A DNA stretch of 64,000 bases from Escherichia coli (GTDB lineage Bacteria > Pseudomonadota > Gammaproteobacteria > Enterobacterales > Enterobacteriaceae). The notes under the pieces were generated by a model, which made no database searches, was not told the DNA's origin, and was given only the letters and a program-made list of their open reading frames with translations. The stretch lies in the NCBI RefSeq assembly GCF_044324875.1, contig NZ_CP172185.1; one strand, written 5' to 3'. Of the stretch, positions 8,027 to 31,646 are shown in pieces; position 1 is the first letter of the stretch; each line of letters begins with the position of its first letter. Both the position numbers and the translations under genes were made by a program.

Positions 8027-8060
8027 CTGATATATCTTGTTTTTAAGAGTATGCTTCCCA

Positions 8061-8535: not shown

Positions 8536-8823
8536 ATGACTCTAAAGGAATTCATCAAATCATTAAAAACTGGAGAAGCAAAAAAATTTGCTGCCAACCT
8601 TGGTGTGTCTCCGTCCTTCTTGTCTCAAATGGCATCTGGCAGTTCACCAGTGTCTCCTGTTCGTGCGTTAATGATAGAAGCAGAAACTGCAGGGCATGTT
8701 ACAAGAAGAGAGTTGAGGCCGAATGACTGGGATCTTATATGGCCGGAATACACCGGAATTACGCCCCCTTCAAGTCATAAATATGAGCTTAACACCAAAA
8801 AAGTTGATGGGGTTGATTCATGA
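8536..8823 (+). CDS. Cro-like regulator, YdaS/DicC-type HTH
   Basis: Internal ATG at 8536 of track ORF 8503..8823. Motif KFAANLGVSPSFLSQMASGSSPVSPVRALMIEAETAGHV resembles Rac YdaS. First rightward gene. Confidence 0.7.
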   Translation: MTLKEFIKSLKTGEAKKFAANLGVSPSFLSQMASGSSPVSPVRALMIEAETAGHVTRRELRPNDWDLIWPEYTGITPPSSHKYELNTKKVDGVDS

Positions 8824-9245: not shown

Positions 9246-9316
9246 TCGGCAATATTCATACCGGATCTCTTTCGGTAATACGTGATTAAAAAGATTCGGT
9301 ATCTGAAGAGGTTAGT

Positions 9317-10387: not shown

Positions 10388-10393
10388 AGGATT

Positions 10394-11140: not shown

Positions 11141-11163
11141 TTTTATCGGGGAGAAAAAATTTA

Positions 11164-11934
11164 ATGGAAACCGTTTTAGACGCACTGAAAGCAATGGGAA
11201 AAGCCACGTCGGTAGAATTGGCTACGCGACTTGATATCAGTCGTGAAGAAGTTCTGAACGAGCTGTGGGAACTCAAAAGAAATGGCCTCGTTGATAAAAC
11301 TGGTCACATCTGGTTTCTGGCTGGCGAAGGTGAATCCCGGGTAACCGAAGAGCGACCAGTAAAATCTGAAGCACAGGATATGCTGACCGGGGAGGTTGAA
11401 CAAAAAGTTACCGCAGACATGATGATTGAGTTTATCAGTCAGGAGGGGGCTAAAACGTGTGAGGAACTGGCGGGTAAGTTCGGTGTCAGCACTCGCAAGG
11501 TTGCTTCCACACTGGCGGTAGTAACCGCAACGGGGCGGCTGGCACGCGTTAATCGGAACGGTAAATTTAGTTACTGCATGCCGGGCGATAATTTACCGGC
11601 AGAGCCGAAAGCTGCACCGGTAACGAAAACGGCTGGTAAGGCCTTTCCTCAGCCAGCAGGTGTTGCGTTACCAGTACAGGAAGCTGCAACACAGGAAGAA
11701 ATTACAACAGATACTGTGGCGGACATTGTGCAGTCGCTGCCATCGTTTACTGAAACGCGAGCGGATGACCTGGTTTTACCATCGCTGCATATGGCAAACC
11801 GCGAATTGCGTCGGGCGAAAAATCATGTTCAGAAGTGGGAGCGAGTCTGCGCCGCGCTGCGGGAGCTGAACAAGCACCGGGATATTGTTCGACAGATTAC
11901 TGATTCTTCCCGCCGTGTTGTATCGGAAAAGTGA
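11164..11934 (+). CDS. Hypothetical phage protein with N-terminal winged-helix-like region
   Basis: 256 aa; N-terminus ELATRLDISREEVLNELWELKRNGLVDKTG is wHTH-like; Ala/Pro-rich linker. Confidence 0.55.
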   Translation: METVLDALKAMGKATSVELATRLDISREEVLNELWELKRNGLVDKTGHIWFLAGEGESRVTEERPVKSEAQDMLTGEVEQKVTADMMIEFISQEGAKTCEELAGKFGVSTRKVASTLAVVTATGRLARVNRNGKFSYCMPGDNLPAEPKAAPVTKTAGKAFPQPAGVALPVQEAATQEEITTDTVADIVQSLPSFTETRADDLVLPSLHMANRELRRAKNHVQKWERVCAALRELNKHRDIVRQITDSSRRVVSEK

Positions 11935-12344
11935 TTGCCGGAGGCGCTTATGGCAAAAGTATTTACACAAGAAGAGCGGGAAAAATTAAAGGGCAGGTTG
12001 TCGAACTCGTGCGACAGAGCGGGCGCGAGACGTTACGACAACTGGAAGCGAAAACAGGTGCGACAAGATATCTGCTGAGCGTTCTTGCCAGAGAGCTGGT
12101 TGCCAGTGGTGATGTATACAATTCAGGCTACGGATTATTCCCGTCTGAGCAGGCGCGTAAAGACTGGCAAAACGCCCGCAAAAAACTATCAAGGGAAAAG
12201 GTGAAAAAACCGGTTGTGGTTGATCCTGACCTTATCTGGTCATTACCAGACGGAGAAATACGCCGCTACGACAGGCGCCTGAATATAATCTGTCGCGAGT
12301 GCCGGAAGAGCGAAGCTATGCAGCGTGTACTGGCATTTTATTAA
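11931..12344 (+). CDS. Hypothetical phage protein (137 aa), wHTH-like
   Basis: GTG start overlapping the upstream stop (GTGA). ETLRQLEAKTGATRYLLSVLARELVASGDV resembles a winged helix. Confidence 0.5.
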   Translation: MIAGGAYGKSIYTRRAGKIKGQVVELVRQSGRETLRQLEAKTGATRYLLSVLARELVASGDVYNSGYGLFPSEQARKDWQNARKKLSREKVKKPVVVDPDLIWSLPDGEIRRYDRRLNIICRECRKSEAMQRVLAFY

Positions 12345-12549
12345 GGAAATGTTAGGTATTTTAGACGTTACTAGATTAAAGAGCATTAGTTCAGATGTGA
12401 ATTGACATTTTCATGGCGCAGGGTAGAGCTAGTGTGGTTGTCCGCTTTGCGTCAAAACCAGATATTACCAGATTTAGACATATATTCCCGATAGCCCTGC
12501 TCTGATGCTACACTCTGTGCTATTTTCATGACCCCCAATAAAAATATTT

Positions 12550-13215
12550 ATGACTATTGCTGATTTCAAACGGCCTAAATTGGAGCTCCCGAACGGGGCA
12601 AACAAACTACTACTGCACTCTTGCTGTGCTCCATGTTCCGGTGAAGTGATGGAGGCGCTTCAGGCCTCGGGAATCGACTACACCATCTTTTTCTACAACC
12701 CGAACATTCATCCTCAGAAAGAGTATTTAATTCGTAAGGATGAAAATATTCGCTTTGCTGAACAACACGGCGTGCCGTTTATCGATGCTGATTACGACAC
12801 CGACAACTGGTTTGAACGTGCCAAAGGAATGGAATGGGAGCCTGAGAGGGGGATCCGTTGTACCATGTGTTTTGACATGCGTTTTGAGCGGACAGCGTTG
12901 TACGCTGCTGAAAATGGTTTCAGTGTGATCAGCAGTTCACTGGGCATTTCACGCTGGAAAAATATGCAGCAGGTTAACGAGTGTGGGCGGCGAGCTGTTG
13001 CGCATTATCCGGGTATGGTGTACTGGGATTATAACTGGCGCAAGCAGGGCGGCTCGTCCCGTATGATTGAAATCAGCAAGCGCGAAAAATTCTATCAGCA
13101 GGAATATTGTGGCTGTGTGTATTCTCTGCGCGATACCAATCTACACCGCAAATCTCAGGGACGCCCTCTTATAAAAATTGGCCAACTCCACTACGGAAAA
13201 GAAGAGAAGGAGTGA
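12550..13215 (+). CDS. queH: QueH-like protein (DUF208; putative cobalamin-independent epoxyqueuosine reductase)
   Basis: 221 aa with N-terminal [10 protein letters not shown] motif, FYNPNIHP...EY, and C-terminal EYCGCVYS cysteines, matching my recollection of DUF208/QueH. Preceded by about 200 bp non-coding with a TTGACA-like element. Confidence 0.6.
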
Positions 13216-13451
13216 TTTTATGGATCACCTTTCTGATTGATTTCATATTGGCGAGGTGACGGGAGTTAAGTAGAATTGCTGCGGGTGCTTGAGGCTATCT
13301 GCCTCGGGCATGAACACCAACGGCAGATAGAGAAAAGCCCCAGTTAACATTATGCGTCCTGCAAGACGCTTAACATTAATCTGAGGCAGAATCTATGTCT
13401 AGCAAATGTAGGTTAGCCTCTTACGTGCCGAAAGGCAAGGAGAAGCAGGCT

Positions 13452-13607
13452 ATGAAGCAGCAAAAGGCGATGTTAGTCGCCCTGATCGTCATCTGTATTA
13501 CCGTCATTGTGACGGCACTGGTAACGAGGAAAGACCTCTGCGAGGTACGAATCCGAACCGGCCAGACGGAGGTCGCTGTCTTCACAGCTTACGAACCTGA
13601 GGAGTAA
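13452..13607 (+). CDS. hok: Hok/Gef-family membrane toxin (type I toxin-antitoxin)
   Basis: MKQQKAMLVALIVICITVIVTALVTRKDLCEVRIRTGQTEVAVFTAYEPEE (51 aa) closely resembles HokD/RelF. Track ORF 13395..13607 carries an in-frame upstream extension. Upstream leader has inverted repeats. Confidence 0.8.
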   Translation: MKQQKAMLVALIVICITVIVTALVTRKDLCEVRIRTGQTEVAVFTAYEPEE

Positions 13608-13711
13608 GAGACCAGGCGAGGGAGAAATCCCTCGCCACCTCTGATGTGTCAGGCATTCTCAACGCACCCGCACTTAACCCGCTTCGGCTGTTCCTTAGTT
13701 TGTCCTGATTT

Positions 13712-14065
13712 TTATTTATTACTAATACATGATTTAATTCCTTGAATCCTCTTGTTTTTTCCATTGGTAGGATCTAACACACCTCGAAGAGAATAAAAAT
13801 CAATAGTGGTAGAGCCGTCTGCTGACTTATAAATGTCGGCATTATCTGCAACTGCTAATACACTGTAATATTTACCAATTTTTTGAGAAGTGATAGTATA
13901 CAAGAGAGGTACACGTTGCCACTCACTGAGAATGCATTCTTGTATTTCTTGTGGTGGAGAATTTGTTTTAAATGAAATGATAATATCCTGCTCTTCTCTA
14001 TAATTATAAGGGTTTACGCATCCAGAAATTGCGAAAGAAAACAGAAGAATAATGATCCTGTTCAT
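13712..14065 (-). CDS. Predicted lipoprotein (about 117 aa from internal Met), AT-rich
   Basis: Internal start MNRIIILLFSFAISGC gives a signal peptide plus lipobox. Gene is markedly AT-rich compared with neighbours. No known family. Confidence 0.55.
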   Translation of the reverse strand: MNRIIILLFSFAISGCVNPYNYREEQDIIISFKTNSPPQEIQECILSEWQRVPLLYTITSQKIGKYYSVLAVADNADIYKSADGSTTIDFYSLRGVLDPTNGKNKRIQGIKSCISNK

Positions 14066-14127
14066 TTTTTTGCCTCTTTTGAAAATATTACTCAATTATT
14101 TTAGTTGCGGTGTGTTATAAGCATTAA

Positions 14128-14427
14128 CTATAAAATATTAGATTCATAATTTTGTCCGCCGTGGTAAACGCCAGCGATAAAGACTTTATTGCCATCAACG
14201 GCAAAAGCAATAATCGTTCTGTGTCGGAAATGAGTTACCCGCATCCCCTGGCGAATATCATCGCGTTTATTGCCCCGATGCGGGAATGTAGAAAACCCAT
14301 CAAGATAATCAAGAAGCGCATTGGCATAATTGTCAGCAATGACGCTTCTTGCTTTCTCCGTTATATATCTGTGCAGGTTTATTATCTGCTGTTCGGCCTC
14401 GGGGGTAATGATGACTTCATATGTCAT
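14128..14427 (-). CDS. parE: ParE-family toxin (type II TA)
   Basis: 99 aa; MTYEVIITPEAEQQIINLHRYI...FRHRTIIAFAVDGNKVFIAGVYHGGQNYE fits ParE/RelE. Immediately downstream of the ParD-like gene. Confidence 0.8.
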   Translation of the reverse strand: MTYEVIITPEAEQQIINLHRYITEKARSVIADNYANALLDYLDGFSTFPHRGNKRDDIRQGMRVTHFRHRTIIAFAVDGNKVFIAGVYHGGQNYESNIL

Positions 14428-14432
14428 GCAGA

Positions 14433-14690
14433 TTACTTCCCGGATCGAATCGCGGCGCGAACCTGTGAAATGGAGCGTCCGTTGTTTGGATTTTCGCGGA
14501 TAGAATCAAGAGAGGGGGCGGCTGAATGCGTTAACCACGCTTCGATTGCTTTATCGCGCTCATTCAGTGCACGAAGCCCTTCACGAATGACCTCGCTTTC
14601 TGAAGCATAGGCACCGGAAGCCACACGGGCGCGCACCATGTCAGCCATCTCGTTAGTTAATGTAATGCTGAATTGTTGGGTTGTACGCAT
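14433..14690 (-). CDS. parD: ParD-family antitoxin (RHH)
   Basis: Internal ATG at 14690 with upstream GAGG. MRTTQQFSITLTNEMADMVRARVASGAYASESEVIREGLRAL is the typical ParD N-terminus. Confidence 0.75.
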   Translation of the reverse strand: MRTTQQFSITLTNEMADMVRARVASGAYASESEVIREGLRALNERDKAIEAWLTHSAAPSLDSIRENPNNGRSISQVRAAIRSGK

Positions 14691-14825
14691 GGTAAACCTC
14701 ACGGAGTAGGATAGAACACTATTCGATGATAGCACGCTGCCTGTTGACGACAACAGAAATCAGAGACAATATTGCCGCACGCCAGCCTGAACAACTGGCA
14801 CCTGCTGCGCCAGCAGAGAAAACAA

Positions 14826-15098
14826 ATGGCGCACAATACCAAAAATCACAATTCTGATGCCGTTCGTGCCAGCAGGCATGGGCGGCGTTCGCGCGTATTT
14901 AAAACCGACTGGTACCAACACCCTCCATGCACTGAAGAACAGGCCGAATGGCTGATTCAGTGTTACCGCAGACACGGATACGAGATTAAGAAAGCCCTCA
15001 GCCTCGATTATCGTCACTGGATAATCTCCGTCAGGCTTCCTTACTCAGAACGCCCACCGCGTCCGTCCCGCACATACCAGCAACGTATCTGGAGGTAA
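14826..15098 (+). CDS. Hypothetical phage protein (about 90 aa)
   Basis: Internal ATG of track ORF 14772..15098; basic N-terminus; stop overlaps the RBS of the next gene. Confidence 0.45.
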   Translation: MAHNTKNHNSDAVRASRHGRRSRVFKTDWYQHPPCTEEQAEWLIQCYRRHGYEIKKALSLDYRHWIISVRLPYSERPPRPSRTYQQRIWR

Positions 15099-15099
15099 C

Positions 15100-16158
15100 G
15101 TGCGGGTATTACTTCGACCTGTTCTGGTACCGGAACTCGGGCTGGTGGTCCTTAAGCCCGGTCGTGAATCCATGCCGGTATTTCACAATCCTCGAGTGCT
15201 GGTGGAGCCGGAACCGAAAAGTATGTGCGGCCTGCCATCCGGAGTCGTCCCTGCCGTTCGCCAGCCGCTGGCGGAGGATAAATCATTACTGCCATTTTTC
15301 AGCGATGATCGGGTGATTCGTGCTGTTGGCGGCGCTGGGGCACTGTCTGACTGGCTGTTGCGTCATGTCAAATCCTGCCAGTGGCCTCATGGTGACTATC
15401 ATCACAGTGAAATCGTCATACATCGTTACGGTACCGGCGCGATGGTGTTGTGCTGGCACTGCGACAACCAGCTGCGTGACCAGACATCCGAATCACTCGA
15501 GCAACTTGCTCATCAAAACCTGTCAGCATGGATGATTGACGTCATCGGTCACGCAATAAGCGGTACGCAGGAGCGTGAATTATCTCTGGCTGAATTATCC
15601 TGGTGGGCGGTCCGCAATCAGGTGGCGGACGCGCTTCCGGAGGCAGTATTACGTCGTTCTCTGGGGTTACGTGCGGAAAAAATCCGCTCCTTGTACCGCG
15701 AAAGCGACATCGTACCGGGAGAGCAGACCGTCACCAGCATACTGAAGCAGCGCACAAAAAATATTGCGCTACCGCCTCTCGTCCACCAGCAACAGAACCC
15801 ACCACAGGAAGAGACGGTGGTCAGCATTGCCGTTGATCCGGAGTCACCGGCTCAGTATCTCCAGCGCCAGAAACCACAACGGGAAGAGATGCCTGTATAC
15901 ACGCGCTGGGTAAAAACGCAGAAATGCATGACGTGCGGTAATCAGGCAGATGATCCGCATCACATCATTGGTCATGGACTGGGAGGGATGGGAACAAAGG
16001 CTGATGATTTGTTTGTTATTCCGCTGTGCCGTAAATGTCATAACGAACTGCACGCCGGGGTAAAAGATTTTGAAGAAAAACACGGCAGCCAGCTGTTGTT
16101 GCTGATTCGTTTTTTAATGCACGCGAGAAATTCAGGTGTCCTGAAGTGGAAAGCATAA
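15100..16158 (+). CDS. DUF968-like phage protein with C-terminal Cys/His (HNH-like) motif
   Basis: 352 aa; GTG start preceded by GGAGG. C-terminal CMTCGNQADDPHHIIGHGLGG...LCRKCHNELH. Position before rusA/Q. Confidence 0.6.
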   Translation: MRVLLRPVLVPELGLVVLKPGRESMPVFHNPRVLVEPEPKSMCGLPSGVVPAVRQPLAEDKSLLPFFSDDRVIRAVGGAGALSDWLLRHVKSCQWPHGDYHHSEIVIHRYGTGAMVLCWHCDNQLRDQTSESLEQLAHQNLSAWMIDVIGHAISGTQERELSLAELSWWAVRNQVADALPEAVLRRSLGLRAEKIRSLYRESDIVPGEQTVTSILKQRTKNIALPPLVHQQQNPPQEETVVSIAVDPESPAQYLQRQKPQREEMPVYTRWVKTQKCMTCGNQADDPHHIIGHGLGGMGTKADDLFVIPLCRKCHNELHAGVKDFEEKHGSQLLLLIRFLMHARNSGVLKWKA

Positions 16159-16524
16159 ATGACTGAAAGCATAGAATTTGTTTTGCCTTACCCGCCAACG
16201 GTGAACACCTACTGGCGACGTCGTGGCAGCACATATTTTGTATCAAAAGCCGGTGAGCGTTATCGCCGTGATGTGGCGCTCATTGTTCGCCAGCAGCGGC
16301 TGAAGTTAAACCTGTCCGGACGGCTGGCGATAAAGATTATTGCAGAGCCACCGGATAAACGTCGTCGTGACCTGGACAATATCCTGAAAGCACCACTGGA
16401 TGCGCTGACGCATGCCGGACTTCTCATAGACGACGAGCAGTTTGATGAAATCAATATTGTGCGCGGTCAGCGCGTTCCTGGGGGGCGGCTGGGCGTGAAG
16501 ATTTACAAAATTGAGAGTGAGTGA
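16159..16524 (+). CDS. rusA: Holliday junction resolvase RusA
   Basis: 121 aa; PPTVNTYWRRRGSTYFVSKAGERYRRDVA...DKRRRDLDNILKAPLDALTHAGLLIDDEQ matches the RusA family. Confidence 0.85.
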   Translation: MTESIEFVLPYPPTVNTYWRRRGSTYFVSKAGERYRRDVALIVRQQRLKLNLSGRLAIKIIAEPPDKRRRDLDNILKAPLDALTHAGLLIDDEQFDEINIVRGQRVPGGRLGVKIYKIESE

Positions 16525-17111
16525 TCGTAAATATGATATACCCGGAAATTACAGGCAAAAGCGGCGAGCATTTACGTCTAAAAACGCTGGAAGCCGTCTG
16601 GATCCAGGGGAAATTACGGATGTGGGGGCGTTGGTCGTATATCAGTGGAGGGACTAGCGGTAACATGTTTAACCAACTGCTTGTATCCAGCAAAATTACC
16701 AAAACTGCAATCAACGATGCGCTGCGCCGTATGAAAAAGTCAGGCATTACGAAACCAGAGCTCGAAGCTTATTTGCGCGAAATACTCAACAGTAAAAACA
16801 AAAGTAGTCTGGCGTTTTGCTCGGACGATGAAGGCCTGAAGATTGACGGTGTGATCGCCTCGGTGCTGATGAATAATGATTACCGTTCTCTATACGGTGT
16901 GATTGTTGGCCGGTATCGTCTGCGTAAGAGCAAGTTGCAAATGGCCAATGAGCTTCATATTAAACATCCTGACTGGGCGCTCATTACCTGTCGCCGCCGA
17001 GTTGACACATGGATAAGTTTGGCCGAATCGCTCCTGTACGTTCCACTATGTGATGCGTTTGGCACAAATAGCGACAGATTTAAATTGCAAAGTGAGCAAG
17101 AAAGTGCTTGA
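16521..17111 (+). CDS. Late-gene antiterminator Q-like protein
   Basis: 196 aa directly upstream of the tR'-like terminator and lysis genes. LEAVWIQGKLRMWGRW resembles the conserved N-terminal motif of phage 82/DLP12-type Q proteins. Family assignment is tentative. Confidence 0.6.
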   Translation: MIVNMIYPEITGKSGEHLRLKTLEAVWIQGKLRMWGRWSYISGGTSGNMFNQLLVSSKITKTAINDALRRMKKSGITKPELEAYLREILNSKNKSSLAFCSDDEGLKIDGVIASVLMNNDYRSLYGVIVGRYRLRKSKLQMANELHIKHPDWALITCRRRVDTWISLAESLLYVPLCDAFGTNSDRFKLQSEQESA

Positions 17112-17160
17112 ATTGTGATAAGCTCGGGACGAAAAGCGAACTGAGCAACATAATAGTAAG

Positions 17161-17186
17161 AACCCGCCATTGTGCGGGTTTTTTTG
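17161..17186 (+). terminator. Rho-independent terminator (tR'-like) about 50 nt after Q
   Basis: AACCCGC-CATTGTG-CGGGTT followed by TTTTTTT. Confidence 0.6.
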
Positions 17187-17510
17187 TCTGCACAACAGGT
17201 AAGAGCACTGAACCCGCAGACCTCGCGGAACTGGTGAAAGGTGCCGCGCAGTGCTCTTATCGTTGTGGTGAAGCTCAATGGCGAGCTAGCAGATAGGCGA
17301 CAGTGAAAATACTAGTCATGTATCTGACCGCCGCGCGTACTGCAATCGGCAGCGCACCGATGGAAGCCGGTTCGATTCCGGCCGCCACAACCCAAACTGA
17401 GCCGTAGCCACTGGCTGTCCTGAACTCCTCAGTGATAGTTACGCTGCGGCCTTCTTTTTCCCCTTCCTAATACAAGAACTACGCAATCCGTTACTGGCGG
17501 AGGCGTTGCT

Positions 17511-17726
17511 ATGAAATCCATGGATAAGATAACAACGGGTGTCGCCTATGGCACCTCGGCAGGCAGTGCCGGGTACTGGTTTTTACAGTGGCTTGATCAG
17601 GTTAGTCCGTCACAGTGGGCTGCTATTGGTGTGCTGGGGAGTCTGGCACTGGGCTTTCTGACTTATCTGACGAATCTGTATTTCAAAATTAAAGATGATC
17701 GGCGCAAAGTGGCGCGGGGAGAGTAG
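17511..17726 (+). CDS. S: Holin, phage 21 S21 pinholin type
   Basis: 71 aa; [71 protein letters not shown] is near-identical to recalled S21. GGAGG RBS. Confidence 0.9.
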
Positions 17727-17729
17727 GCG

Positions 17730-18041
17730 ATGAATAAAAAATACGAACTGGTTATTAAAGGGATAAGTAGTCACCCGGATAAGGTTGTGGTTACTGTGGC
17801 GCTGGAGAGCGACGGCTATCCGACGCTGTTTTCGCCGCATGTGGTGATTAAGCTTGATCGTGTTGACGGCGCAGCGCTGGAGCTTTATGAAGCAGAGGCG
17901 AAAAAACGAGCGAAGAAGATTTTTATGGATGCTGCTGCCGGGTTATGTGAAGCGTGGTCGTTGCCGGAAAAGCGCCTCCATTCAGAGGCGCGGTATACCA
18001 TAAAAATTAACGGTTCAGATAACTCAATTGCTGGTTTTTAA
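17730..18041 (+). CDS. Hypothetical protein (103 aa) inserted between holin and endolysin
   Basis: Starts 4 nt after the holin stop with GGAGAG upstream; no known motif. Confidence 0.5.
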   Translation: MNKKYELVIKGISSHPDKVVVTVALESDGYPTLFSPHVVIKLDRVDGAALELYEAEAKKRAKKIFMDAAAGLCEAWSLPEKRLHSEARYTIKINGSDNSIAGF

Positions 18042-18277
18042 CCTTTTGTCTCAGTTGGCTTTCCAATATCTTTCATTGGTAGCAGCATTTCGATATTGCT
18101 TTTGATATATGGATTATCTGCATGTTCTGTTAATTGATAAATGATAGCATTTTTTTCATTCTGGTCTAATACAGAAAACATAACTGCAATCATATATTTA
18201 AGAGCCTCAATTTCTCCTGTTGTTGAGTTGGGGGATGAACAGTCCGCTGTAACATTAATAAAAGTTTCTTTTTTCAT
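18038..18277 (-). CDS. Hypothetical AT-rich ORF (79 aa), opposite strand, inside the lysis cassette
   Basis: Convergent with 17730..18041; markedly AT-rich compared with flanks, suggesting a horizontally acquired insert. Confidence 0.4.
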   Translation of the reverse strand: MKKETFINVTADCSSPNSTTGEIEALKYMIAVMFSVLDQNEKNAIIYQLTEHADNPYIKSNIEMLLPMKDIGKPTETKG

Positions 18278-18401
18278 ATCAGATCCTTAGATGGGGTAGC
18301 TCAGCCAACCACCCGAGCCTTAACCGGAACGCCAGTGCCCACTACACTACTGGCGGGCTGAGGCTTTAACATATCCAGGGTTCAGAAAACGATAAATATC
18401 C

Positions 18402-24162: not shown

Positions 24163-25380
24163 ATGAAACTTCATGAGATGAGGCAAAAACGAAACACCAT
24201 TGCAAAGGATATGCGTGCACTGCATGAAAAAATTGGTGATAACGCATGGACTGATGAGCAACGGGCAGAGTGGAACAGGGCGAAAGCTGAGCTGGATGCG
24301 CTGGATGAGCAAATCGCCCGTGAAGAAGAGTTGCGCCGTCAGGATCAGGCATATGTGGATGAGTCCGGGCCGGAAGAGCGCCAGAATAATGAGGCGGAGA
24401 ACGGGAAAAAGGCGGTGGAAGAGAAGCGTGCTGCGGCATTTAACCGTTTTCTGCGTGCCGGATTTGCAGAACTGAATGCTGAAGAGCGTAATCTGATGCG
24501 TGAACTGCGGGCTCAGGGTGTAACAACGGATTCTCAGGGCGGATATACGGTGCCCACGCAGATGCGTAACAAAATCATTGACGCCATGAAGGCTTATGGC
24601 GGGATTGCCGGTGTGGCACAACTTCTGACCACATCAACCGGGCAGGATATCACCTGGTCAACGTCTGACGGCACGACTGAAGAGGGCGAACTGCTGGCGG
24701 AAAATACAGCCGCAACGGAGCAGGATGTGACGTTCGGGACTGCTATTCTGGGGGCTAAAAAGCTGTCATCAAAAATAATTCGTGTGTCCAATGAGCTGCT
24801 CCAGGACAGTGGGGTGGATATTGAATCTTATCTGGCAAACCGTATTGCCCAGCGTATTGGTCGTGGAGAGGCAAAATATCTGGTTCAGGGGACCGGAACG
24901 GGATCACCGTTACAGCCAAAAGGGCTGGCAGCGTCGGTGACGGGAACCATCCAGACTGCAGCTTCTGCCGCTTTCACCTGGAAAGAAATGAATGCCCTGA
25001 AACATGCCATTGATCCGGCATATCGTGGTGGGCCGAAATACCGCTGGGCATTCAATGATGCCACATTGCAGACTATTGAACAGATGGAGGATGGACAGAA
25101 ACGCCCGTTATGGCTTCCGGATATTGCAGGCGGTACGCCAGCTACTGTGCTGGGGATCCCTTATGTTATTGATCAGGCTATTGACGGGATTGGTACCGGG
25201 AAAAAATTCATTTTCCTGGGGGATTTCAACCGCTTTATCATTCGCCGCGTTACTTATATGGAGCTGAAACGTCTGGTTGAGCGTTATGCTGAGTTTGATC
25301 AGGTAGCATTTCTTGCTTTCCATCGTTTTGACTGTGTGCTGGAAGATGTGGCAGCCATCAAGGCGCTCACTGGCAAATAA
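24163..25380 (+). CDS. Major capsid protein (HK97 fold) with N-terminal delta/scaffold domain
   Basis: 405 aa; coiled-coil-like charged N-terminal 100 aa followed by a capsid domain. Confidence 0.9.
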   Translation: MKLHEMRQKRNTIAKDMRALHEKIGDNAWTDEQRAEWNRAKAELDALDEQIAREEELRRQDQAYVDESGPEERQNNEAENGKKAVEEKRAAAFNRFLRAGFAELNAEERNLMRELRAQGVTTDSQGGYTVPTQMRNKIIDAMKAYGGIAGVAQLLTTSTGQDITWSTSDGTTEEGELLAENTAATEQDVTFGTAILGAKKLSSKIIRVSNELLQDSGVDIESYLANRIAQRIGRGEAKYLVQGTGTGSPLQPKGLAASVTGTIQTAASAAFTWKEMNALKHAIDPAYRGGPKYRWAFNDATLQTIEQMEDGQKRPLWLPDIAGGTPATVLGIPYVIDQAIDGIGTGKKFIFLGDFNRFIIRRVTYMELKRLVERYAEFDQVAFLAFHRFDCVLEDVAAIKALTGK

Positions 25381-25401: not shown

Positions 25402-25423
25402 ACCGCGCCGACGCGGTTTTTTT
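25402..25423 (+). terminator. Terminator-like hairpin after the major capsid gene
   Basis: ACCGCG-CCGA-CGCGGT followed by TTTTTTT. Confidence 0.5.
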
Positions 25424-25456
25424 ATGCCCGCACAGTGTTGCGGGCAGGAGTTTCTG

Positions 25457-26121: not shown

Positions 26122-26567
26122 TGGATTTCAGTCTTGATTTTTCCGGCCTGGCAGATATTGCACGGGATCTGGAGACGCTCAGCAGGGCAGAAAACAATAA
26201 GGTACTGCGCGATGCCACCCGTGCCGGTGCTGAAATTATGCGGGATGCGGTTGTTGAACGTGCGCCGGAGCAAACCGGGAAACTGAAGAAAAATGTGGTT
26301 GTTCTCACTCAGCGTTCAAAGCGTCGGGGGGAAATTATCTCGGGTGTCCACATTCGCGGACGGAACCTGCGAACCGGAAACAGTGATAACAGCATGAAAG
26401 CCAGCGATCCCCGGAATGCGTTTTACTGGCGCTTTGTCGAACTGGGCACGGTAAATATGCCCGCACATCCGTTCATTCGTCCGGCGTTTGATACGACTGA
26501 GGAACTGGCGGCACGGGTTGCCATACAGAGAATGAATCAGGCTATTGATGAGGTATTAAGTAAATGA
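26118..26567 (+). CDS. HK97 gp10-like tail-neck protein
   Basis: 149 aa with overlapping start/stop codons in the morphogenesis operon. Confidence 0.65.
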   Translation: MMDFSLDFSGLADIARDLETLSRAENNKVLRDATRAGAEIMRDAVVERAPEQTGKLKKNVVVLTQRSKRRGEIISGVHIRGRNLRTGNSDNSMKASDPRNAFYWRFVELGTVNMPAHPFIRPAFDTTEELAARVAIQRMNQAIDEVLSK

Positions 26568-26908
26568 GGGAGGCCGCACTGTATTCCCGGCTCTCTGAGC
26601 TGGCCGGAGGACAGGTTTACCCTTATGTGGTCCCGCTGACGGAGGGAAAGCCTGCGGTATCTCCGCCGTGGCTGGTGTTTTCTGTGGTGTCTGATACCGC
26701 ATCTGATGTGCTTGATGGTCAGGCTGAATCCAGAATTACCGTGCAGATCGATGTCTGGGCAAGGATACCTGATGACGCAGATAATATCCGTGAGCAGGCG
26801 CTTGATGCGGTAAGGCAACTTGCACCCTCCGTTATTTCTAAAACGCAGGGTTATGATCCTGATTCCCGTCTGAGCAGAGCCACGCTTGAATTTCAGGTAA
26901 TAGCCTGA
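26564..26908 (+). CDS. Tail completion protein (gp11-like)
   Basis: 114 aa, position-based with family-like sequence. Confidence 0.6.
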   Translation: MREAALYSRLSELAGGQVYPYVVPLTEGKPAVSPPWLVFSVVSDTASDVLDGQAESRITVQIDVWARIPDDADNIREQALDAVRQLAPSVISKTQGYDPDSRLSRATLEFQVIA

Positions 26909-26929
26909 GGTCGTTAATGATTTTACCCA

Positions 26930-26950
26930 CCCGCCGCTGGCGGGTTTTTT
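26930..26950 (+). terminator. Strong hairpin plus T-run between tail-completion and major tail genes
   Basis: CCCGCC-GCT-GGCGGG followed by TTTTTT. Confidence 0.5.
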
Positions 26951-26967
26951 ATTTTCAGGAGACGAGT

Positions 26968-27672
26968 ATGCCCTCGAATTTTGAACGTTCGCAACTGACG
27001 AAAATTATGATTTCGTCCGTACCGGTAAGGAAAGAAACACTGGATTCTGCCAGTTTTCTTGAACTGAGCTGTACGATTAAAGAGGTTCAGTTTACCGCCG
27101 GGCAGAAACAGGACATTGACGTCACCACGCTGTGTTCTGTTGAGCAGGAGAATATCAACGGTCTTGGGGCTGCTTCAGAGATTTCCATGTCAGGAAATTT
27201 TTATGTCAATGCTGCCCAGAACGCGTTGCGCAGTGCCTATGACAATGACGCCACGTATGGCTTTAAAGTTATTTTTCCGTCAGGCAACGGATTTACCTTT
27301 ATGGCAGAGGTGCGTCAGCATACCTGGTCTGCAGGTACTAACGGCGTGGTGGCTGCCACATTTTCCCTTCGCCTGAAAGGTAAGCCTGTGCTGACCACAC
27401 AGTTGCTGAAAGTTAAGCTTGACTTAAAAAGTACGCTGAAAGTCTCTACCGGCAATAAACTGGAAATGGTGGTTGAGGCTGCCGGTGGTGTGCCGCCTTA
27501 TTCTTATGTCTGGAAGAAAGGTGGTTCTCCTGTTGCCGGACAGACGGCGGCAACGTTCAGTAAGGCATCCGCAGTATCCGGTGATGCCGGTGCGTATACC
27601 TGCGAGATTTCTGATTCAGCAAGCCCTGTTAACAAGGTGACCTCCACTTCCTGCACTGTTACCGTCAGTTAA
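26968..27672 (+). CDS. Major tail protein with C-terminal Ig-like domain
   Basis: Internal ATG at 26968 with GGAG RBS. C-terminal 90 aa (KVSTGNKLEMVVEAAGGVPPYSYVWKKGGSPVAG...YTCEISD) is Ig-like. Confidence 0.8.
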   Translation: MPSNFERSQLTKIMISSVPVRKETLDSASFLELSCTIKEVQFTAGQKQDIDVTTLCSVEQENINGLGAASEISMSGNFYVNAAQNALRSAYDNDATYGFKVIFPSGNGFTFMAEVRQHTWSAGTNGVVAATFSLRLKGKPVLTTQLLKVKLDLKSTLKVSTGNKLEMVVEAAGGVPPYSYVWKKGGSPVAGQTAATFSKASAVSGDAGAYTCEISDSASPVNKVTSTSCTVTVS

Positions 27673-28058
27673 TGAGGATAGATGTGATGACTAAAAATAT
27701 CCGTAATCTGGCACTGGCAACGATGTCGGGGTTTCGCCATAAAACTGTTGATGTGCCTGAATGGGAAGGGGCAACGGTTGTGTTACGGGAACCTTCTGCA
27801 GAAGCCTGGTTGCGCTGGCAGGAGATCGTTAAAGCAAAAGATGATGAGACACCGTTATCCGTTGCGGAGCGCGCCCGCCGAAATCTGAAAGCGGATGTTG
27901 AACTGTTCATCGATGTTCTGTGTGATACCGGACTGCAACCTGTATTTTCAGAGGATGATCGTGAACAGGTGATTGCCGTGTATGGCCCGGTGCATGCGCG
28001 GCTTCTTCGTCAGTCACTGGAACTGATCAGTGATGCCGGAGAGGTTAAAAAAAAGTAG
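27672..28058 (+). CDS. Tail assembly chaperone (lambda gpG analog)
   Basis: 128 aa ending at a slippery A AAA AAG site. Confidence 0.8.
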   Translation: MRIDVMTKNIRNLALATMSGFRHKTVDVPEWEGATVVLREPSAEAWLRWQEIVKAKDDETPLSVAERARRNLKADVELFIDVLCDTGLQPVFSEDDREQVIAVYGPVHARLLRQSLELISDAGEVKKK

Positions 28059-28360
28059 CGCTTCCGGGGATGCGTTTTCTGATGATGCTGGCGCTCAGGA
28101 TGGGGCGCACATTGTCAGAATTACGCCGGGAAATGTCCGCATCAGAAATCATGATGTGGGCAGAATTTGACAGGTTCAGCCCGCTGGGGGACGAACGGGC
28201 TGATATCCGGGCTGCCCAGATAGTTTCTGCGGTTTACGGTGCGCAGGGTGTCAAAGTACCACTGAATGACGCGCTTCTTCAGTGGGAACAAGAGCTGACA
28301 GAAGGCGCCTCAGATCCATTTGCCGGACTGGAAAACGCGCTTTTAACCGTGTCTCAGTGA
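27672..28360 (+). CDS. Tail assembly chaperone G-T fusion made by programmed -1 frameshift
   Basis: A -1 slip at A AAA AAG (28049..28055) reads through into the frame of ORF 28070..28360 (MRFLMMLALRMGR...), the conserved G/GT arrangement of long-tailed phages. Confidence 0.65.
28049..28055 (+). promoter_or_regulatory. -1 programmed ribosomal frameshift slippery heptamer A AAA AAG
   Basis: Heptamer is in the zero frame of the chaperone gene, 1 codon before its stop; the -1 frame is open into the next ORF. Confidence 0.7.
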
Positions 28361-28368
28361 GTCAACAT

Positions 28369-28390
28369 AACCGCTTCGGCGGTTTTTTTT
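28369..28390 (+). terminator. Hairpin with TTCG tetraloop plus T8, just upstream of the tape measure gene
   Basis: AACCGC-TTCG-GCGG followed by TTTTTTTT. Confidence 0.5.
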
Positions 28391-28400
28391 CGTCCGGAGA

Positions 28401-31400
28401 GTGAGTGTGGCGACATTACGTGAACTGATTATTAAAATCTCGGCAAATTCCCGGTCATTCCAGTCAGAGATCTCCCGGGCTTCGCGTATGGGGCAGGATT
28501 ACTACCGTACCATGCAGAACGGAGGCCGACAGTCCGCTGCTGTATCCCATGAAATGCGGCGTGCACTGGCAGAAGTGACGGATCAGATAAATACAGCTAA
28601 ATCTTCGGCACTGAACATGGCGGGGGCATTTGCCGGGGCTTTTGCTACCGGTCATCTTATTTCTCTCGCCGATGAGTGGAATTCAGTAAATGCCCGTCTG
28701 AAGCAGGCCTCACAGTCCAGTGATGATTTTCAGTCATCACAGCGTGAATTAATGGCGATCAGCCAGAGAACGGGGACGGCTTTTTCTGATAACGCCAGCC
28801 TTTTTGCCCGCTCTGCAGCTTCCATGCGGGAGTATGGTTACAGTTCTGAGGAGGTACTGAAAGTCACCGAGGCGATCTCCACGGGCCTGAAATTATCCGG
28901 TGCCAGTACAGCAGAAGCCAGTTCGGTGATCACGCAGTTCAGTCAGGCTCTGGCGCAGGGAGTGCTGCGCGGTGAAGAGTTTAACTCGGTGAATGAGAGT
29001 GGCGATCGTGTTATTCGTGCTCTGGCTGCGGGAATGGGAGTTGCCCGTAAGGATCTGAAGGCCATGGCGGATAACGGAAAGTTGACCGCCGATAAGGTTG
29101 TTCCTGCACTGATTAGTCAGCTTGGGGCATTACGTGATGAATATGCGGCAATGCCTGATACGGTTTCATCCTCTGCAACCAAAGTTGAAAACGCCTTTAT
29201 GGCCTGGGTTGGTGGTGCGAACGAGGCAAGCGGAGTGACGAAGACGCTCTCCGGTGTGCTGAATGGTATTGCAGGCAATATTGACACCGTGGCAACCGCT
29301 GCCGGTGCTCTGGTTGCCGTCGGGGTAGCCCGATATTTTGGCAATATGGCGTCGTCTGCTGGATCTGCAACTGCCGGATTAATTACTGCAGCCAGAAACG
29401 AAGTGGCTCTTGCTGAAGTGCAACTTCGGGGGACACAGATAGCAACCGCCAGGGCGCGTGCGGCGGTTTATCGTGCGCAACAGGCGGTTGTTGCTGCTCG
29501 CGGTACCGAAAGGCAGGCCGCAGCAGAAGCGAAGCTGACAGCTGCCCAGGCGTCACTTACCCGTAATATTGCGGCCAGAACAGCGGCACAGACAACGCTG
29601 AATAATGTTACGTCAGTGGGGAGTCGTTTATTAAGTGGCGCGCTGGGGCTGGTTGGTGGTGTGCCGGGGCTTGTCATGCTGGGGGCTGCGGCCTGGTACA
29701 CGATGTATCAGAATCAGGAGCAGGCCAGAGAATCTGCACGCCAGTATGCCGCAACAATCGACGAAATTCGCCAGAAAACGTCGGCAATGTCGCTTCCTGA
29801 AGCGTCAGATAATGAGGAAAAGACGCGACAGGCACTGAAGGAGCAAAACAGGTTAATTGACGAGCAGAAAAGTAAGATTAAATCCTTACAGGAAAAAATT
29901 GCTGGCTATCAGTATGTGCTGGCAAATCCGGGTTGGACAACCGATAACGGTTTTATGATTAACCACATGACGTCGGTAAAAACTGTCACAGAAGGGCTTG
30001 CAGAAGCAACAAATCAACTGGCAGTTGAACAGTCTCGCCTCACTCAAATGCAGGGCAAAGCGCAATCCATTCAGGATGTGCTTGCCGGGCTGGAGGAGCG
30101 ACGGGTGGCGTTGATCCGTCAACAGGCAGCGGAACAAAACAAAGCGTATCAGTCCCTGTTGATCATGAATGGGCAGCATACCGAGTTTAATCGCCTTCTC
30201 GGGCTCGGTAATGAATTACTTCAGCAGCGACAGGGGCTGGTGAATGTACCGTTACGGCTACCACAGGCAACCCTGGATGATAAACAGCAGACCGCACTGA
30301 ATAACAGCGAGCGCGAACTGGCTCTGTCCCGCCTGAAGGGGGAAGCCCGTGAGCGTGCCCGCCTGGGTTATGCTGCGGATGATCTCGGCTTTGTGGGAGA
30401 GGCGTATCAGACAGCAAGACTGAATTATATAAATAACTCACTGGATGCATGGCGAAATAACCAGGCAAATAAACCCAAAGCGCATAAAAAGACCGAAGCG
30501 GAAAAAACAGAAGATACTTATAAGCGACTGATTAAACAGCAAAAAGAGCAAATAGCACTGGCAGGGCAGAATACTGAACTGGCTAAGATGAAATATCAGG
30601 TCAGCAAGGGCGAATTATCAACCCTGTCAGAAGCGCAGAAAAAAACGCTTTTGCAGAATGCAGCACTCATCGACCAGAAAAAGATTCGTGAGCAGCTTGC
30701 TGCGTATGAGAGCAGTCTGGCGGACAGTAATGCCAGTGTCAGAGCATCAAATGAGGCTCAGTTACTGGGATATGGTGAAGGCTCACGGATGCGTGAACGA
30801 CTTCAGGAAATGTGGAGCATCCGGCAGGAGTTTGAGCAGAAAAATAACGAGCTACTGAGACAGTATCAGGCCGGAGAAATTGAAGAAGCCCTGTGGAAAC
30901 AGGAAAAATCTCTGAATGAAAAATATCTGGAAGAGCGTCTCAGCGATCAGCAGGATTATTATGCAAAGGCTGATGCTTTACGCAGTAACTGGAATGCCGG
31001 ACTCCAGGAGGGACTGACGAACTGGGCAGACAGTGCCACCGATTATGCTTCGCAGGCGGCAGATGCTGTCGTTTCCACTATGGACGGGCTGGTATCAAAT
31101 ATTTCCGATGCACTGGCCGGAAATGTTGTGGACTGGAGAAACTGGGGGAGTTCAATTCTCCAGGAAGTTTCAAAAATTCTGATGAACGCTGCCATCGTTA
31201 ACGGGCTGAAGTCACTTTCCAAAAGCATGTCCGGTGCCGGAGGATGGCTTGGTACAGTCGGCGACTGGCTTTCCGGTGCAGTGGCAAACGCAAAAGGTGG
31301 TGTTTATACATCGGCAAATCTGAGTGCTTACAGTAACACCATTGTGGATACCCCGACGTATTTTGCTTTTGCGAAAGGTGCCGGGCTGATGGGCGAGGCC

Positions 31401-31646
31401 GGGCCTGAAGCTATCATGCCACTGACTCGGGCAGCGGACGGCTCTCTTGGAGTCAGAGCCATTGGCAATGTGAATGGTGGCGGTGGATTTGTTTATTCTC
31501 CCGTGTATCACATCAGCATTCAGAATCAGGGGAGCAATGGCGAGATAGATGCGCGCTCAGCCAGGGGACTGGTGGATCTGATCGACAGCAGGGTTGTGTC
31601 AGTTATGCAGTCATCGCGTCGGGATGGAGGATTGTTGAGTGGGTGA
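28401..31646 (+). CDS. Tail tape measure protein
   Basis: 1081 aa, Ala/Gln-rich coiled-coil-like, canonical position. Confidence 0.9.
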   Translation: MSVATLRELIIKISANSRSFQSEISRASRMGQDYYRTMQNGGRQSAAVSHEMRRALAEVTDQINTAKSSALNMAGAFAGAFATGHLISLADEWNSVNARLKQASQSSDDFQSSQRELMAISQRTGTAFSDNASLFARSAASMREYGYSSEEVLKVTEAISTGLKLSGASTAEASSVITQFSQALAQGVLRGEEFNSVNESGDRVIRALAAGMGVARKDLKAMADNGKLTADKVVPALISQLGALRDEYAAMPDTVSSSATKVENAFMAWVGGANEASGVTKTLSGVLNGIAGNIDTVATAAGALVAVGVARYFGNMASSAGSATAGLITAARNEVALAEVQLRGTQIATARARAAVYRAQQAVVAARGTERQAAAEAKLTAAQASLTRNIAARTAAQTTLNNVTSVGSRLLSGALGLVGGVPGLVMLGAAAWYTMYQNQEQARESARQYAATIDEIRQKTSAMSLPEASDNEEKTRQALKEQNRLIDEQKSKIKSLQEKIAGYQYVLANPGWTTDNGFMINHMTSVKTVTEGLAEATNQLAVEQSRLTQMQGKAQSIQDVLAGLEERRVALIRQQAAEQNKAYQSLLIMNGQHTEFNRLLGLGNELLQQRQGLVNVPLRLPQATLDDKQQTALNNSERELALSRLKGEARERARLGYAADDLGFVGEAYQTARLNYINNSLDAWRNNQANKPKAHKKTEAEKTEDTYKRLIKQQKEQIALAGQNTELAKMKYQVSKGELSTLSEAQKKTLLQNAALIDQKKIREQLAAYESSLADSNASVRASNEAQLLGYGEGSRMRERLQEMWSIRQEFEQKNNELLRQYQAGEIEEALWKQEKSLNEKYLEERLSDQQDYYAKADALRSNWNAGLQEGLTNWADSATDYASQAADAVVSTMDGLVSNISDALAGNVVDWRNWGSSILQEVSKILMNAAIVNGLKSLSKSMSGAGGWLGTVGDWLSGAVANAKGGVYTSANLSAYSNTIVDTPTYFAFAKGAGLMGEAGPEAIMPLTRAADGSLGVRAIGNVNGGGGFVYSPVYHISIQNQGSNGEIDARSARGLVDLIDSRVVSVMQSSRRDGGLLSG

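Follow-up and report, generated by a model that had tools for sequence, protein, structure and literature searches.

Phage lambda offers the closest described precedent for a translational frameshift within a tail operon. Its late genes run in the order major tail, G, T and tape measure, T lies in the -1 frame relative to G without a convincing start of its own, and a slippery heptamer, G_GGA_AAG, falls in the short overlap between the two genes (Levin, Hendrix & Casjens 1993; Xu, Hendrix & Duda 2004, 2013, 2014; all as cited in PMC5009743). Phage HK97 (GenBank AF069529; Juhala et al. 2000) has a -1 frameshift annotated for gp14 (genes 13/14), and its record places terminator features after gene 5, which encodes the capsid protein (5192-5213), before the major tail gene 12 (6692-6719) and before the tape measure gene H (8398-8422). 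The records of phages HK633 and HK446 likewise mark terminators at these three junctions. Between T and the last of its terminators HK97 carries gene 15, whose product, a small membrane protein, is an example of superinfection exclusion. This gene, sited between the chaperone and tape measure genes, is a moron, the name given to a unit of promoter, gene and terminator lying between two late genes (PMC3594210). A further point of reference is the dnaX gene of Escherichia coli, in which the heptamer A_AAA_AAG, decoded by a single tRNA-Lys, is flanked by two stimulators, a Shine-Dalgarno (SD)-like element 10 nt 5' of it and, a few nucleotides to its 3' side, a stem-loop. In lambdoid phages, RNA polymerase modified by the antiterminator Q reads through intrinsic terminators.

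The stretch of E. coli DNA analysed here (the window, 64,000 nucleotides) holds a lambdoid prophage whose head is of the HK97 type and whose tail is of the lambda/HK97 type, and shares about 66% DNA identity with HK97 across the region of interest, where junction sequences were aligned between the two. As in lambda, the major tail gene is followed by G, T and the tape measure gene (Table 1). The locus probably combines a -1 frameshift with conserved Rho-independent terminator hairpins at the module boundaries of an HK97-like late operon. Upstream lies a gene for a Q-like late antiterminator (Phage_antitermQ score 34.8 bits, against a cut-off of 26), whose product is predicted to allow the polymerase to read through the hairpins downstream. 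Annotation coordinates from TUM1886 were unusable upstream of ~18.4 kb, because the window differs from the TUM1886 genome there.

Table 1. Features of the prophage late region, in window coordinates.
Feature	Coordinates	Strand	Basis or remark
Q-like late antiterminator gene	16521..17111	+	Pfam DUF1133 E = 1.6e-90; Phage_antitermQ E = 1.8e-8
Hairpin AACCCGC / GCGGGTT with T7, ~50 nt 3' of the Q-like gene	17161..17187	+	strict scan
Major capsid protein gene (HK97 fold family)	24163..25380	+	Pfam Phage_capsid E = 3e-70; PGAP
Post-capsid hairpin ACCGCG-ccga-CGCGGT with T7	25402..25424	+	scans; HK97 putative terminator at the same junction
Second, stronger hairpin without T-run	25425..25446	+	-18.0 kcal/mol, z = -5.9
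Tail terminator / tail completion gene	26564..26908	+	Tail_completion_gp17 E = 9.5e-12; PHROG 347 tail terminator
Hairpin 1, intrinsic-terminator-type stem-loop with T5-A-T4	26929..26955	+	scans, folding, HK97 positional homologue
Major tail (tube) protein gene	26968..27672	+	PHROG 158 E = 1e-103; PGAP start 26968
Gene G, tail assembly chaperone, zero frame, 123 aa	27687..28058	+	Pfam Phage_TAC_1 E = 3.1e-58, full length
Slippery heptamer A_AAA_AAG, X_XXY_YYZ phase	28049..28055	+	
T segment, -1 frame continuation (predicted G-T fusion 224 aa in total)	28055..28360	+	
Hairpin 2, intrinsic-terminator-type stem-loop with T-run	28369..28390	+	scans, folding, HK97 positional homologue
Tape measure protein gene	28407..31646	+	Phage_HK97_TLTM E = 2e-93; TMP_3; Tape_meas_lam_C (Pfam)

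The product of the gene at 26564-26908 is HK97 gp11-like (DUF3168). The major tail gene has its SD sequence, GGAG, at 26958-26961, and the protein ends in an Ig-like domain (Pfam Ig_2 E = 6e-7). A longer reading frame from the ATG at 26917, which would render hairpin 1 coding, was rejected: PGAP places the start at 26968, residue 1 of the short form is where the PHROG alignment begins, and relatives keep the hairpin-bearing gap. For the tape measure gene, PGAP chooses the GTG at 28407, which is better spaced from the SD sequence GGAG (28396-28399) than the alternative GTG at 28401.

The frameshift between G and T is well supported. Gene G ends in the zero-frame codons GTT AAA AAA AAG TAG, the stop occupying 28056-28058, and its heptamer forms part of a run of eight A residues (28047-28054). 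In the -1 frame a TAA (28046-28048) precedes a frame that is open from 28049 to a TGA at 28358-28360; since this frame is closed just upstream, G and T can be joined only by a -1 slip on the heptamer, at which the frame overlap of only 10 nt begins. The predicted fusion, of about 25 kDa with the junction peptide EVKKKVALPGMR, matches Pfam Phage_tail_T (E = 1.3e-18) and PHROG 14766, the latter over 1-221 of its 224 positions. None of the in-frame ATG codons of T (28070, 28082 and 28085) has a properly spaced SD sequence, and a T-frame peptide, KKVA.P..RFLM.LALR.GRT, is conserved across lineages from the shift site onwards, ahead of any ATG. The first-pass annotation, which had the chaperone gene end in A AAA AAG and fuse to the next reading frame by a -1 slip, agrees with the sequence.

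Its description of the arrangement as textbook is borne out by the gene order, by the Phage_TAC_1 and Phage_tail_T matches and by the comparison of lineages. In the window and 11 other lineages the distance between the ends of T and G is 2 modulo 3, i.e. the shift is -1 in 12/12, and nine of these 12 have a canonical in-phase heptamer. A_AAA_AAG recurs in the same phase in Stx2a_WGPS6, Morganella, Serratia OS31, phi1026b and Bcep176, and G_GGA_AAG takes its place in SP-016 and mEp390; HK97/SaltyDalty and a Klebsiella phage have an A_AAG-type slip site only, so that HK97, unlike the window, lacks a canonical in-phase heptamer. The homologous gene pair is annotated as a frameshift fusion in the records of HK97, HK446, HK022 and Bcep176, and a note in the HK97 record spells out the -1 direction. 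The likeness to lambda extends to a homologous T domain (Pfam Phage_tail_T) as well as to the frame of T, the apparent lack of a convincing T start and the heptamer in a short overlap. The differences are that the window carries the heptamer of dnaX and IS911, that its zero-frame stop directly follows the heptamer, that its G is of the Phage_TAC_1 (HK97 gp13) type, and that a 46-nt gap with a hairpin lies where, in lambda, T overlaps the start of H.

Most ribosomes would translate G and stop at the TAG, while a minority would slip by -1 on A_AAA_AAG, the single E. coli tRNA-Lys re-pairing from AAG to AAA, and read the T frame to 28360. The outcome would be an excess of G with a little G-T, and by homology with lambda the two would act as chaperones of the tape measure protein and bring in the major tail protein. 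Both the fusion protein and the G:G-T ratio are predicted from these sequence features and homologies. The dnaX-type arrangement of stimulators is absent from the window: an SD-like GGAGAGG lies 4-7 nt upstream of the heptamer, ending 4 nt from it, against a stimulatory spacing of 10-14 nt, and no conserved structure was found 5-9 nt 3' of the slip site when 60 nt were folded in 9 lineages (z-scores inconsistent). A frameshift efficiency that is low and lambda-like, and not about 50%, is therefore expected. The SD-like purine tract occurs upstream of the slip site in ~6/9 lineages, a count that is confounded by conserved acidic codons and goes with short spacing. A recurrent hairpin further downstream was considered as a stimulator and rejected, as it starts ~35 nt from the slip site, on codons for the conserved LALR.GR.

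The same fusion could in principle arise, partly or wholly, from transcriptional slippage that adds one A to the A8 run, and an A9 mRNA would, from the sequence, encode the identical protein (...EVKKKVALPG...). The run is even longer, with 10 A residues, in a Halomonas relative. The run of eight in the window falls short of the nine or more on which E. coli RNA polymerase mainly slips efficiently. Relatives with G_GGA_AAG (SP-016, mEp390) or an A_AAG-type site have no long homopolymer and keep the -1 arrangement, and A_AAA_AAG is among the sites most prone to ribosomal shifting in E. coli, as described together with the G:GT mechanism in PMC5009743. Slippage as the source of G-T is accordingly very improbable, and the locus is best read as a ribosomal G-T frameshift.

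The hairpins flanking these genes stand out clearly from background. A strict scan (perfect stem of >=5 bp with >=4 G-C pairs, loop of 3-6 nt and >=6 T in the next 8 positions) returned five + strand sites over the whole 64 kb (17161, 25402, 26929, 28369 and 41444), all of them within the prophage late region. In 100 dinucleotide shuffles of 16.5-41.5 kb the mean expectation was 0.04 and the maximum 1, and a chance origin was rejected on this comparison; a looser scan was less discriminating (32 found, 19.3 +/- 4.7 expected). A search of 16-32 kb against Rfam (E <= 1) gave no match within 25-29 kb. The hairpin 3' of the Q-like gene (-13.3 kcal/mol, z = -3.9) may have a tR'-like role, an assignment that is putative. 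That after the capsid gene, whose stem-loop spans 25402-25417, folds with -11.2 kcal/mol (z = -3.2) and was not listed in the first-pass annotation; the stronger hairpin next to it abuts the SD sequence of the head-tail adaptor gene. The terminator-like nature proposed for the hairpins agrees with the 'putative terminator' features at the same junctions in the records of HK97, HK633 and HK446.

Hairpin 1 sits in the 59-nt gap before the major tail gene. Its stem, ACCCGCC/GGCGGGT, pairs 26929-26935 with 26939-26945 (7 bp, 6 of them G-C) around the loop GCT, and its tail, TTTTTATT, consists of T5 (T6 with the last stem base), A and T4, ending at 26955. Folded alone it reaches -12.6 kcal/mol (z = -2.7). 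The distance of 18 bp to the major tail gene given earlier holds when counting starts at 26950, the last base of the T6 run, and stops at the ATG (26968). Related loci sought with G by itself were all prophages of 99% identity, which say little about covariation, and an alignment led by a Halomonas sequence was used instead. The hairpin and T-run were then found in 68 of 71 distinct junctions (171 loci), including those of Halomonas and Burkholderia phages; the homologues have seven different top-5-bp stems, all Watson-Crick, with compensatory changes at 3/5 positions, and 60 of the 68 place the stem 20-25 nt from the start codon. An inserted gene upstream of hairpin 1 was never found among the junctions compared. 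The positional homologue in HK97 is the 'putative terminator' at 6692-6719.

Hairpin 2 has the stem AACCGC/GCGGTT, in which 28369-28374 pairs with 28379-28384 (6 bp, 4 of them G-C), a TTCG loop and a T8 run at 28383-28390 that leaves T6 after the stem. It begins 8 nt past the T stop codon and ends 16 nt before the tape measure start. The loop and T8 are as first reported, and the 11 bp then given as the distance to the tape measure gene counts to the first GTG, at 28401. Folded alone the hairpin reaches -8.5 kcal/mol (z = -3.5); with longer flanks the predicted minimum-energy fold is an alternative structure, so the terminator fold is not the sole predicted one. In 56 of 72 distinct junctions a hairpin lies no more than 45 nt from the tape measure start, and in 52 of the 72 more than 150 nt separate the T stop from that start. 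Of these gapped junctions, 41 have the hairpin, with 276-982 nt of extra DNA between it and the T stop.

The positional homologue of hairpin 2 in HK97, the terminator at 8398-8422, closes the gene-15 moron. As in morons, the chaperone-tape measure junction of the window has a terminator on its 3' side, and in contrast to them it has neither promoter nor inserted gene: the 46-nt gap holds no open reading frame and hence no extra gene of the kind that makes a moron. HK97 also has an extra hairpin after gene 12 that is missing here. In the window, the site that gene 15 occupies in HK97 is thus empty but for the hairpin. An E. coli prophage of 94% identity has a zinc-ribbon gene, AT-rich at 38% GC, inserted exactly 5' of an identical hairpin; a simple scan called no sigma-70 promoter upstream of the inserted gene in the relative L098. 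Homology between occupied and empty sites starts exactly at the 5' edge of hairpin 2. Sequence comparison suggests a hairpin resident at the junction, with inserts arriving on its 5' side.

Hairpin 2 could instead be a scar, the terminator of a moron since deleted, and functionless in this phage. AACCGC-TTCG-GCGGTT does end the zinc-ribbon insert in the close relatives L012 and L098, as well as in Salmonella phage SP-016 and at some loci with HK97-like G proteins, and most junctions (52/72) contain inserted DNA. Empty sites with the hairpin nevertheless occur in at least four sequence-distinct lineages (the window, Stx phages, mEp390 and Serratia OS31), and in them the T stop precedes it by 0-8 nt and the tape measure start follows it by 16-24 nt, a tight packing that would rarely come from random deletions. 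Together with the homology boundary at the 5' edge of the hairpin, this makes a scar improbable.

On the reading that is probably right, conserved terminators would punctuate the late operon at three module boundaries, one behind the capsid gene and the others ahead of the major tail and tape measure genes. Where a Q-like antiterminator is not at work, in a lysogen or early in infection, the hairpins would stop transcription arising upstream, and in many relatives the stopped transcripts would include those of moron genes immediately 5' of the hairpin 2 homologue. During lytic growth Q-modified polymerase would largely read through them, and the effect on late protein ratios would then amount to modest attenuation at most, or to stabilisation of 3' ends. 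For this phage and its relatives, we infer termination and read-through as well as the efficiency of frameshifting. A literature search on transcript mapping of HK97-like late operons, including Term-seq and in vitro transcription, found nothing relevant, and a paper on small RNAs of EHEC prophages (PMC4104026) concerns the region after PR', which differs from the present locus. Against this reading stands hairpin 1, since an insulating role leaves its near-universal presence, with no insert upstream, unexplained. In the Burkholderia phage Bcep176, which keeps hairpin 1, Pfam detected no Q among 10 proteins upstream of the terminase, although Q families are diverse; should phages of this kind do without antitermination, so strong a terminator ahead of the major tail gene would call for another explanation.

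The proposal of the first-pass annotation that the hairpins set tail-protein stoichiometry survives in part. It suits hairpin 2, as the tape measure protein is needed in few copies relative to the major tail protein and G, and it fails at hairpin 1, where the direction is wrong: the major tail protein is the most abundant, and the genes upstream make connectors of 6-12 copies, whose mRNA would be favoured over its own. A broader version, in which the hairpins cut a fixed fraction of late transcripts even in lytic growth and so set the ratios of structural proteins, can point to the canonical terminator shape of the hairpins, to their position exactly at module boundaries, to a hairpin with T-run directly after the major tail gene in mEp390 and to steps after the capsid gene and after V-G-T that go in the expected direction, the copy numbers required of capsid and tube proteins being far above those of connector and tape measure proteins. 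Besides the problem at hairpin 1, the phage encodes a Q-like antiterminator, and Q-modified polymerase would ignore such terminators. Sampson and colleagues, in 1988, reportedly attributed the ratios of lambda late proteins mainly to translation initiation. Such attenuation is therefore unlikely.

The hairpins may also be thought of as RNA elements that block 3'-to-5' exonucleases, protecting the capsid and V-G-T segments, with hairpin 1 raising expression of the major tail gene: hairpin and U-tract would stabilise the mRNA in the manner of a 5' cap, enhance translation through the binding of S1 to U-rich sequence, and isolate the ribosome site of the gene. This accords with the place of hairpin 1 immediately 5' of the SD sequence of the tail gene in highest demand, in 68/71 junctions and at near-fixed spacing, with the bracketing of V-G-T by hairpins 1 and 2, and with a lambda hairpin with T7 ~20 nt upstream of the major capsid gene E and another just after it; terminators have also been studied as enhancers of upstream mRNA stability (PMC11696848). 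On the other side, a stabiliser needs no conserved T-run right after the stem and an S1 enhancer needs no stem, so that stem and T-run together are the signature of termination, and hairpin 2 precedes a low-copy protein. For both hairpins, a role of this kind has little likelihood. Slightly more credit, still well short of an even chance, goes to a joint scheme in which hairpin 1 is a leader that boosts major tail synthesis and hairpin 2 a resident 'docking' terminator. Hairpin 1 may be a 5' mRNA stabiliser, an S1-binding enhancer or both, given its near-universal presence from enterobacterial to Burkholderia and Halomonas phages and its fixed spacing from the start codon. If the joint scheme holds, the junction of T and the tape measure gene would offer a safe harbour to accessory genes that bring a promoter with them, their insertion leaving the late operon undisturbed, and the HK97 'moron terminator' would be part of the phage backbone instead of the moron.

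The G-T frameshift and the terminator hairpins are real but ordinary, and of kinds described before, and the practical value of the analysis lies mostly in correct annotation. Public records of this sequence and of its closest relatives leave G and T unjoined and the hairpins unmarked: PGAP gives T as a separate CDS from 28082, and the record of phage Evi has two separate chaperone CDSs and a major tail gene that starts at the upstream ATG, its CDS running through the hairpin. Without altering current understanding, the comparison of junctions shows that few non-coding features of HK97-like tail modules are as conserved as the hairpin ahead of the major tail gene, and that the one ahead of the tape measure gene forms the 3' limit of a site where genes for small membrane proteins insert very actively.

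The region is part of a lambdoid prophage of E. coli, and the two hairpins and the frameshift site that the first-pass annotation had picked out in it were all found as described. Positions 26500-28500 match E. coli TUM1886 (NZ_CP128970.1) at 100% identity and induced phages, phi467 and Evi among them, at 93-95%; of 5426 complete E. coli genomes, 902 contain a match. The gene order comes from the PGAP annotation of the identical genome together with Pfam and PHROG scans, which agree. The window is unlike TUM1886 over positions 1-18400 (boundary at ~18.4 kb) and identical to it in the late region, so the TUM1886 record is readable for the late region only. The early and regulatory differences, in tRNA-Ser position, the Q gene and the lysis genes, show these otherwise near-identical prophages to be mosaic. 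The Ig-like domain of the major tail protein (27430-27669, residues about 155-233; Pfam Ig_2, Ig_3 and I-set) belongs to a form common to HK97 and Stx phages; in SP-016, mEp390 and the Burkholderia phages the major tail protein is short and lacks the domain.

Features of the prophage, in window coordinates, and example inserts in relatives, in the coordinates of each relative locus
Feature	Position	Source
Q-like antiterminator gene	16521-17111	
Major capsid protein	24163-25380	PGAP + Pfam/PHROG
Head-tail connector genes	between major capsid and tail terminator genes	PGAP + Pfam/PHROG
Tail terminator (HK97 gp11-like)	26564-26908	PGAP + Pfam/PHROG
Hairpin 1 (before the major tail gene)	26929-26945	
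Major tail protein, C-terminal Ig-like domain	26968-27672	PGAP + Pfam/PHROG
Tail assembly chaperone G	27687-28058	PGAP + Pfam/PHROG
Slip heptamer	28049-28055	
T (-1 frame continuation of G)	between G and tape measure	PGAP + Pfam/PHROG
Hairpin 2 (before the tape measure gene)	28369-28384	
Tape measure protein	28407-31646	PGAP + Pfam/PHROG
Example T-tape measure inserts	L098 3362-3808; L005 4561-5079; L006 4916-5282	

Hairpin 1 has the form ACCCGCC-gct-GGCGGGT and is followed by TTTTT-A-TTTT, a GGAG and the ATG at 26968, while hairpin 2, AACCGC-ttcg-GCGGTT, is followed by a T-run to 28390, a GGAG and a GTG at 28401 or 28407. Folded alone, they reach -12.6 kcal/mol (z = -2.7) and -8.5 kcal/mol (z = -3.5), respectively; a rival predicted fold competes with hairpin 2 once the flanks are longer. 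The gaps that hold them measure 59 and 46 nt, and elsewhere in the operon genes abut or overlap. A strict terminator scan of the + strand of the whole 64-kb window returned only five sites (17161, 25402, 26929, 28369 and 41444), all in the late region, against 0.04 expected from dinucleotide shuffles; a looser scan discriminates less (32 observed vs 19 expected). Judged by sequence, both hairpins carry every feature of intrinsic terminators.

Other structures were seen along the prophage. Downstream of the major capsid gene, a 76-nt gap contains two further hairpins (25402-25446), the first terminator-like with a T7 run, at a junction where HK97 annotates a putative terminator, and the second stronger (-18 kcal/mol), without a T-run and adjoining the SD of the adaptor gene. 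A terminator-like hairpin at 17161-17187, ~50 nt 3′ of the Q-like gene, could be tR'-like. About 150 nt past it lies a weak tmRNA-like fragment (17335-17393; Rfam RF00023, 20 bits, under the gathering score) with the T-arm motif GGTTCGATTCC, which may mark a mosaic joint or be what is left of an ssrA-type attachment sequence.

The G-T frameshift is secure at the sequence level. G ends in GAG GTT AAA AAA AAG TAG, with the heptamer A_AAA_AAG in X_XXY_YYZ phase; the -1 frame has a TAA at 28046-28048 and is open thereafter to 28360, so the 10-nt overlap starts exactly at the heptamer. Conceptually fused, the 224-aa product matches Pfam Phage_TAC_1 at residues 1-123 and Phage_tail_T at residues 151-220; PHROG 14766, a family of fused proteins 224 positions long, is matched from position 1 to 221. 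In all 12 lineages compared, from phages of E. coli, Salmonella, Klebsiella, Morganella, Serratia, Halomonas and Burkholderia, T lies in the -1 frame; the slip site is A_AAA_AAG in six, lambda's G_GGA_AAG in two and an A10 run in Halomonas, and HK97/SaltyDalty and a Klebsiella phage have an A_AAG-type site only. The T-frame peptide KKVA.P..RFLM.LALR.GRT is kept from the shift site on, before the first ATG. A frameshift fusion is annotated for the homologous pair in the HK97, HK446, HK022 and Bcep176 records, the HK97 note spelling out the -1 direction, and a review (PMC5009743) covers G and G-T biology as well as how readily A_AAA_AAG shifts in E. coli. A conserved frameshift stimulator was sought around the heptamer and not found; an SD-like GGAGAGG lies only 4-7 nt upstream, and the sole recurrent downstream hairpin lies ~35 nt away, within conserved coding sequence. 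Because the slip site sits in an A8 run, transcriptional slippage may contribute as well, and an A9 mRNA would yield the same fusion protein.

Public records treat these intervals inconsistently: PGAP treats T as a CDS of its own, begun at an internal ATG, and leaves the frameshift unannotated (28070-28084), and in the phage Evi record the major tail CDS begins at an upstream ATG and spans the hairpin (26917-26967).

To follow both junctions among relatives, 171 loci were gathered, each with a tail terminator gene and G. A strict hairpin with a T-run is present in 68 of 71 distinct pre-major-tail junctions, its stem ending 20-25 nt before the start codon in 60 of the 68, and none of the 71 contains an inserted gene. 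The stems (CCGCC, CCCGC, ACCGC, CCACC, GCTGC, GCCGC and CCGAC) are each exactly complemented, with compensatory changes at three of five positions. The exceptions are phi1026b (a G-U pair in the stem), one locus with a decayed stem bearing two mismatches (L031) and Serratia phage vB_SspS_OS31 (L092), whose hairpin is split by IS150. This element (742-2242) lies within the loop, between CAGCCGCC TCCG and GGCGG TTTTTTT, in what is reported as a complete genome. A close relative, L054, has a ~45-nt tandem duplication over the end of the tail terminator gene and the hairpin (~3176-3290).

The T-tape measure junction is an insertion hot spot (L002-L178), of which the window is the empty form. In 56 of 72 distinct junctions the tape measure start has a hairpin no more than 45 nt away; the junction has none in the Burkholderia phages, Morganella phage IME1369_02 and HK022. 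The distance from the T stop to the tape measure start exceeds 150 nt in 52 of the 72; 41 of these 52 have the hairpin, with 276-982 nt of extra DNA before it. The inserts include YebO-like (HK97 gp15 type) and zinc-ribbon membrane proteins; most encode small membrane-type proteins, several without a Pfam match. In L098, an E. coli prophage that shares 94% identity with the window, the zinc-ribbon insert is AT-rich (38% vs 51-54% GC), and homology restarts exactly at the 5′ edge of an identical hairpin.

The stems are maintained by selection and, since the hairpins also carry all intrinsic-terminator features, termination is most likely the selected activity. Lambdoid late transcription is Q-dependent and the prophage encodes a Q-like antiterminator, so we infer that the hairpins act mainly without Q: in a lysogen they would halt transcription that is stray or comes from a moron, a moron being a promoter, gene and terminator inserted between late genes, and during lytic growth polymerase would largely read through. 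In relatives such as HK97, the pre-tape-measure hairpin would close moron transcripts (PMC3594210); it may be part of the phage backbone or have come with the morons. The earlier suggestion that the hairpins set tail-protein stoichiometry is possible for the pre-tape-measure hairpin and runs in the wrong direction for the pre-major-tail one. For the latter, a putative role at the RNA level, either stabilising the 5′ end or serving as a U-rich translational leader, is a credible alternative to termination and would suit its near-universal presence and fixed spacing.

The HK97 record marks a 'putative terminator' at four sites, before and after gene 12 (major tail), before H (tape measure), where it follows the gene-15 moron, and after gene 5; the HK633 and HK446 records have these features too, and both window hairpins are therefore positional homologues of annotated family elements. 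Lambda lacks a hairpin at U-V and at T-H; it has one with a T7 ~20 nt upstream of major capsid gene E and another directly after it (L179; 6101-6122 and 7164-7187). At the sequence level, the locus fits both the G-T frameshift of lambda/HK97 and the terminators of the HK97 late operon; having no inserted gene, it is not a moron, and it is not a dnaX-type stimulated cassette either. The arrangement is ordinary and already described.
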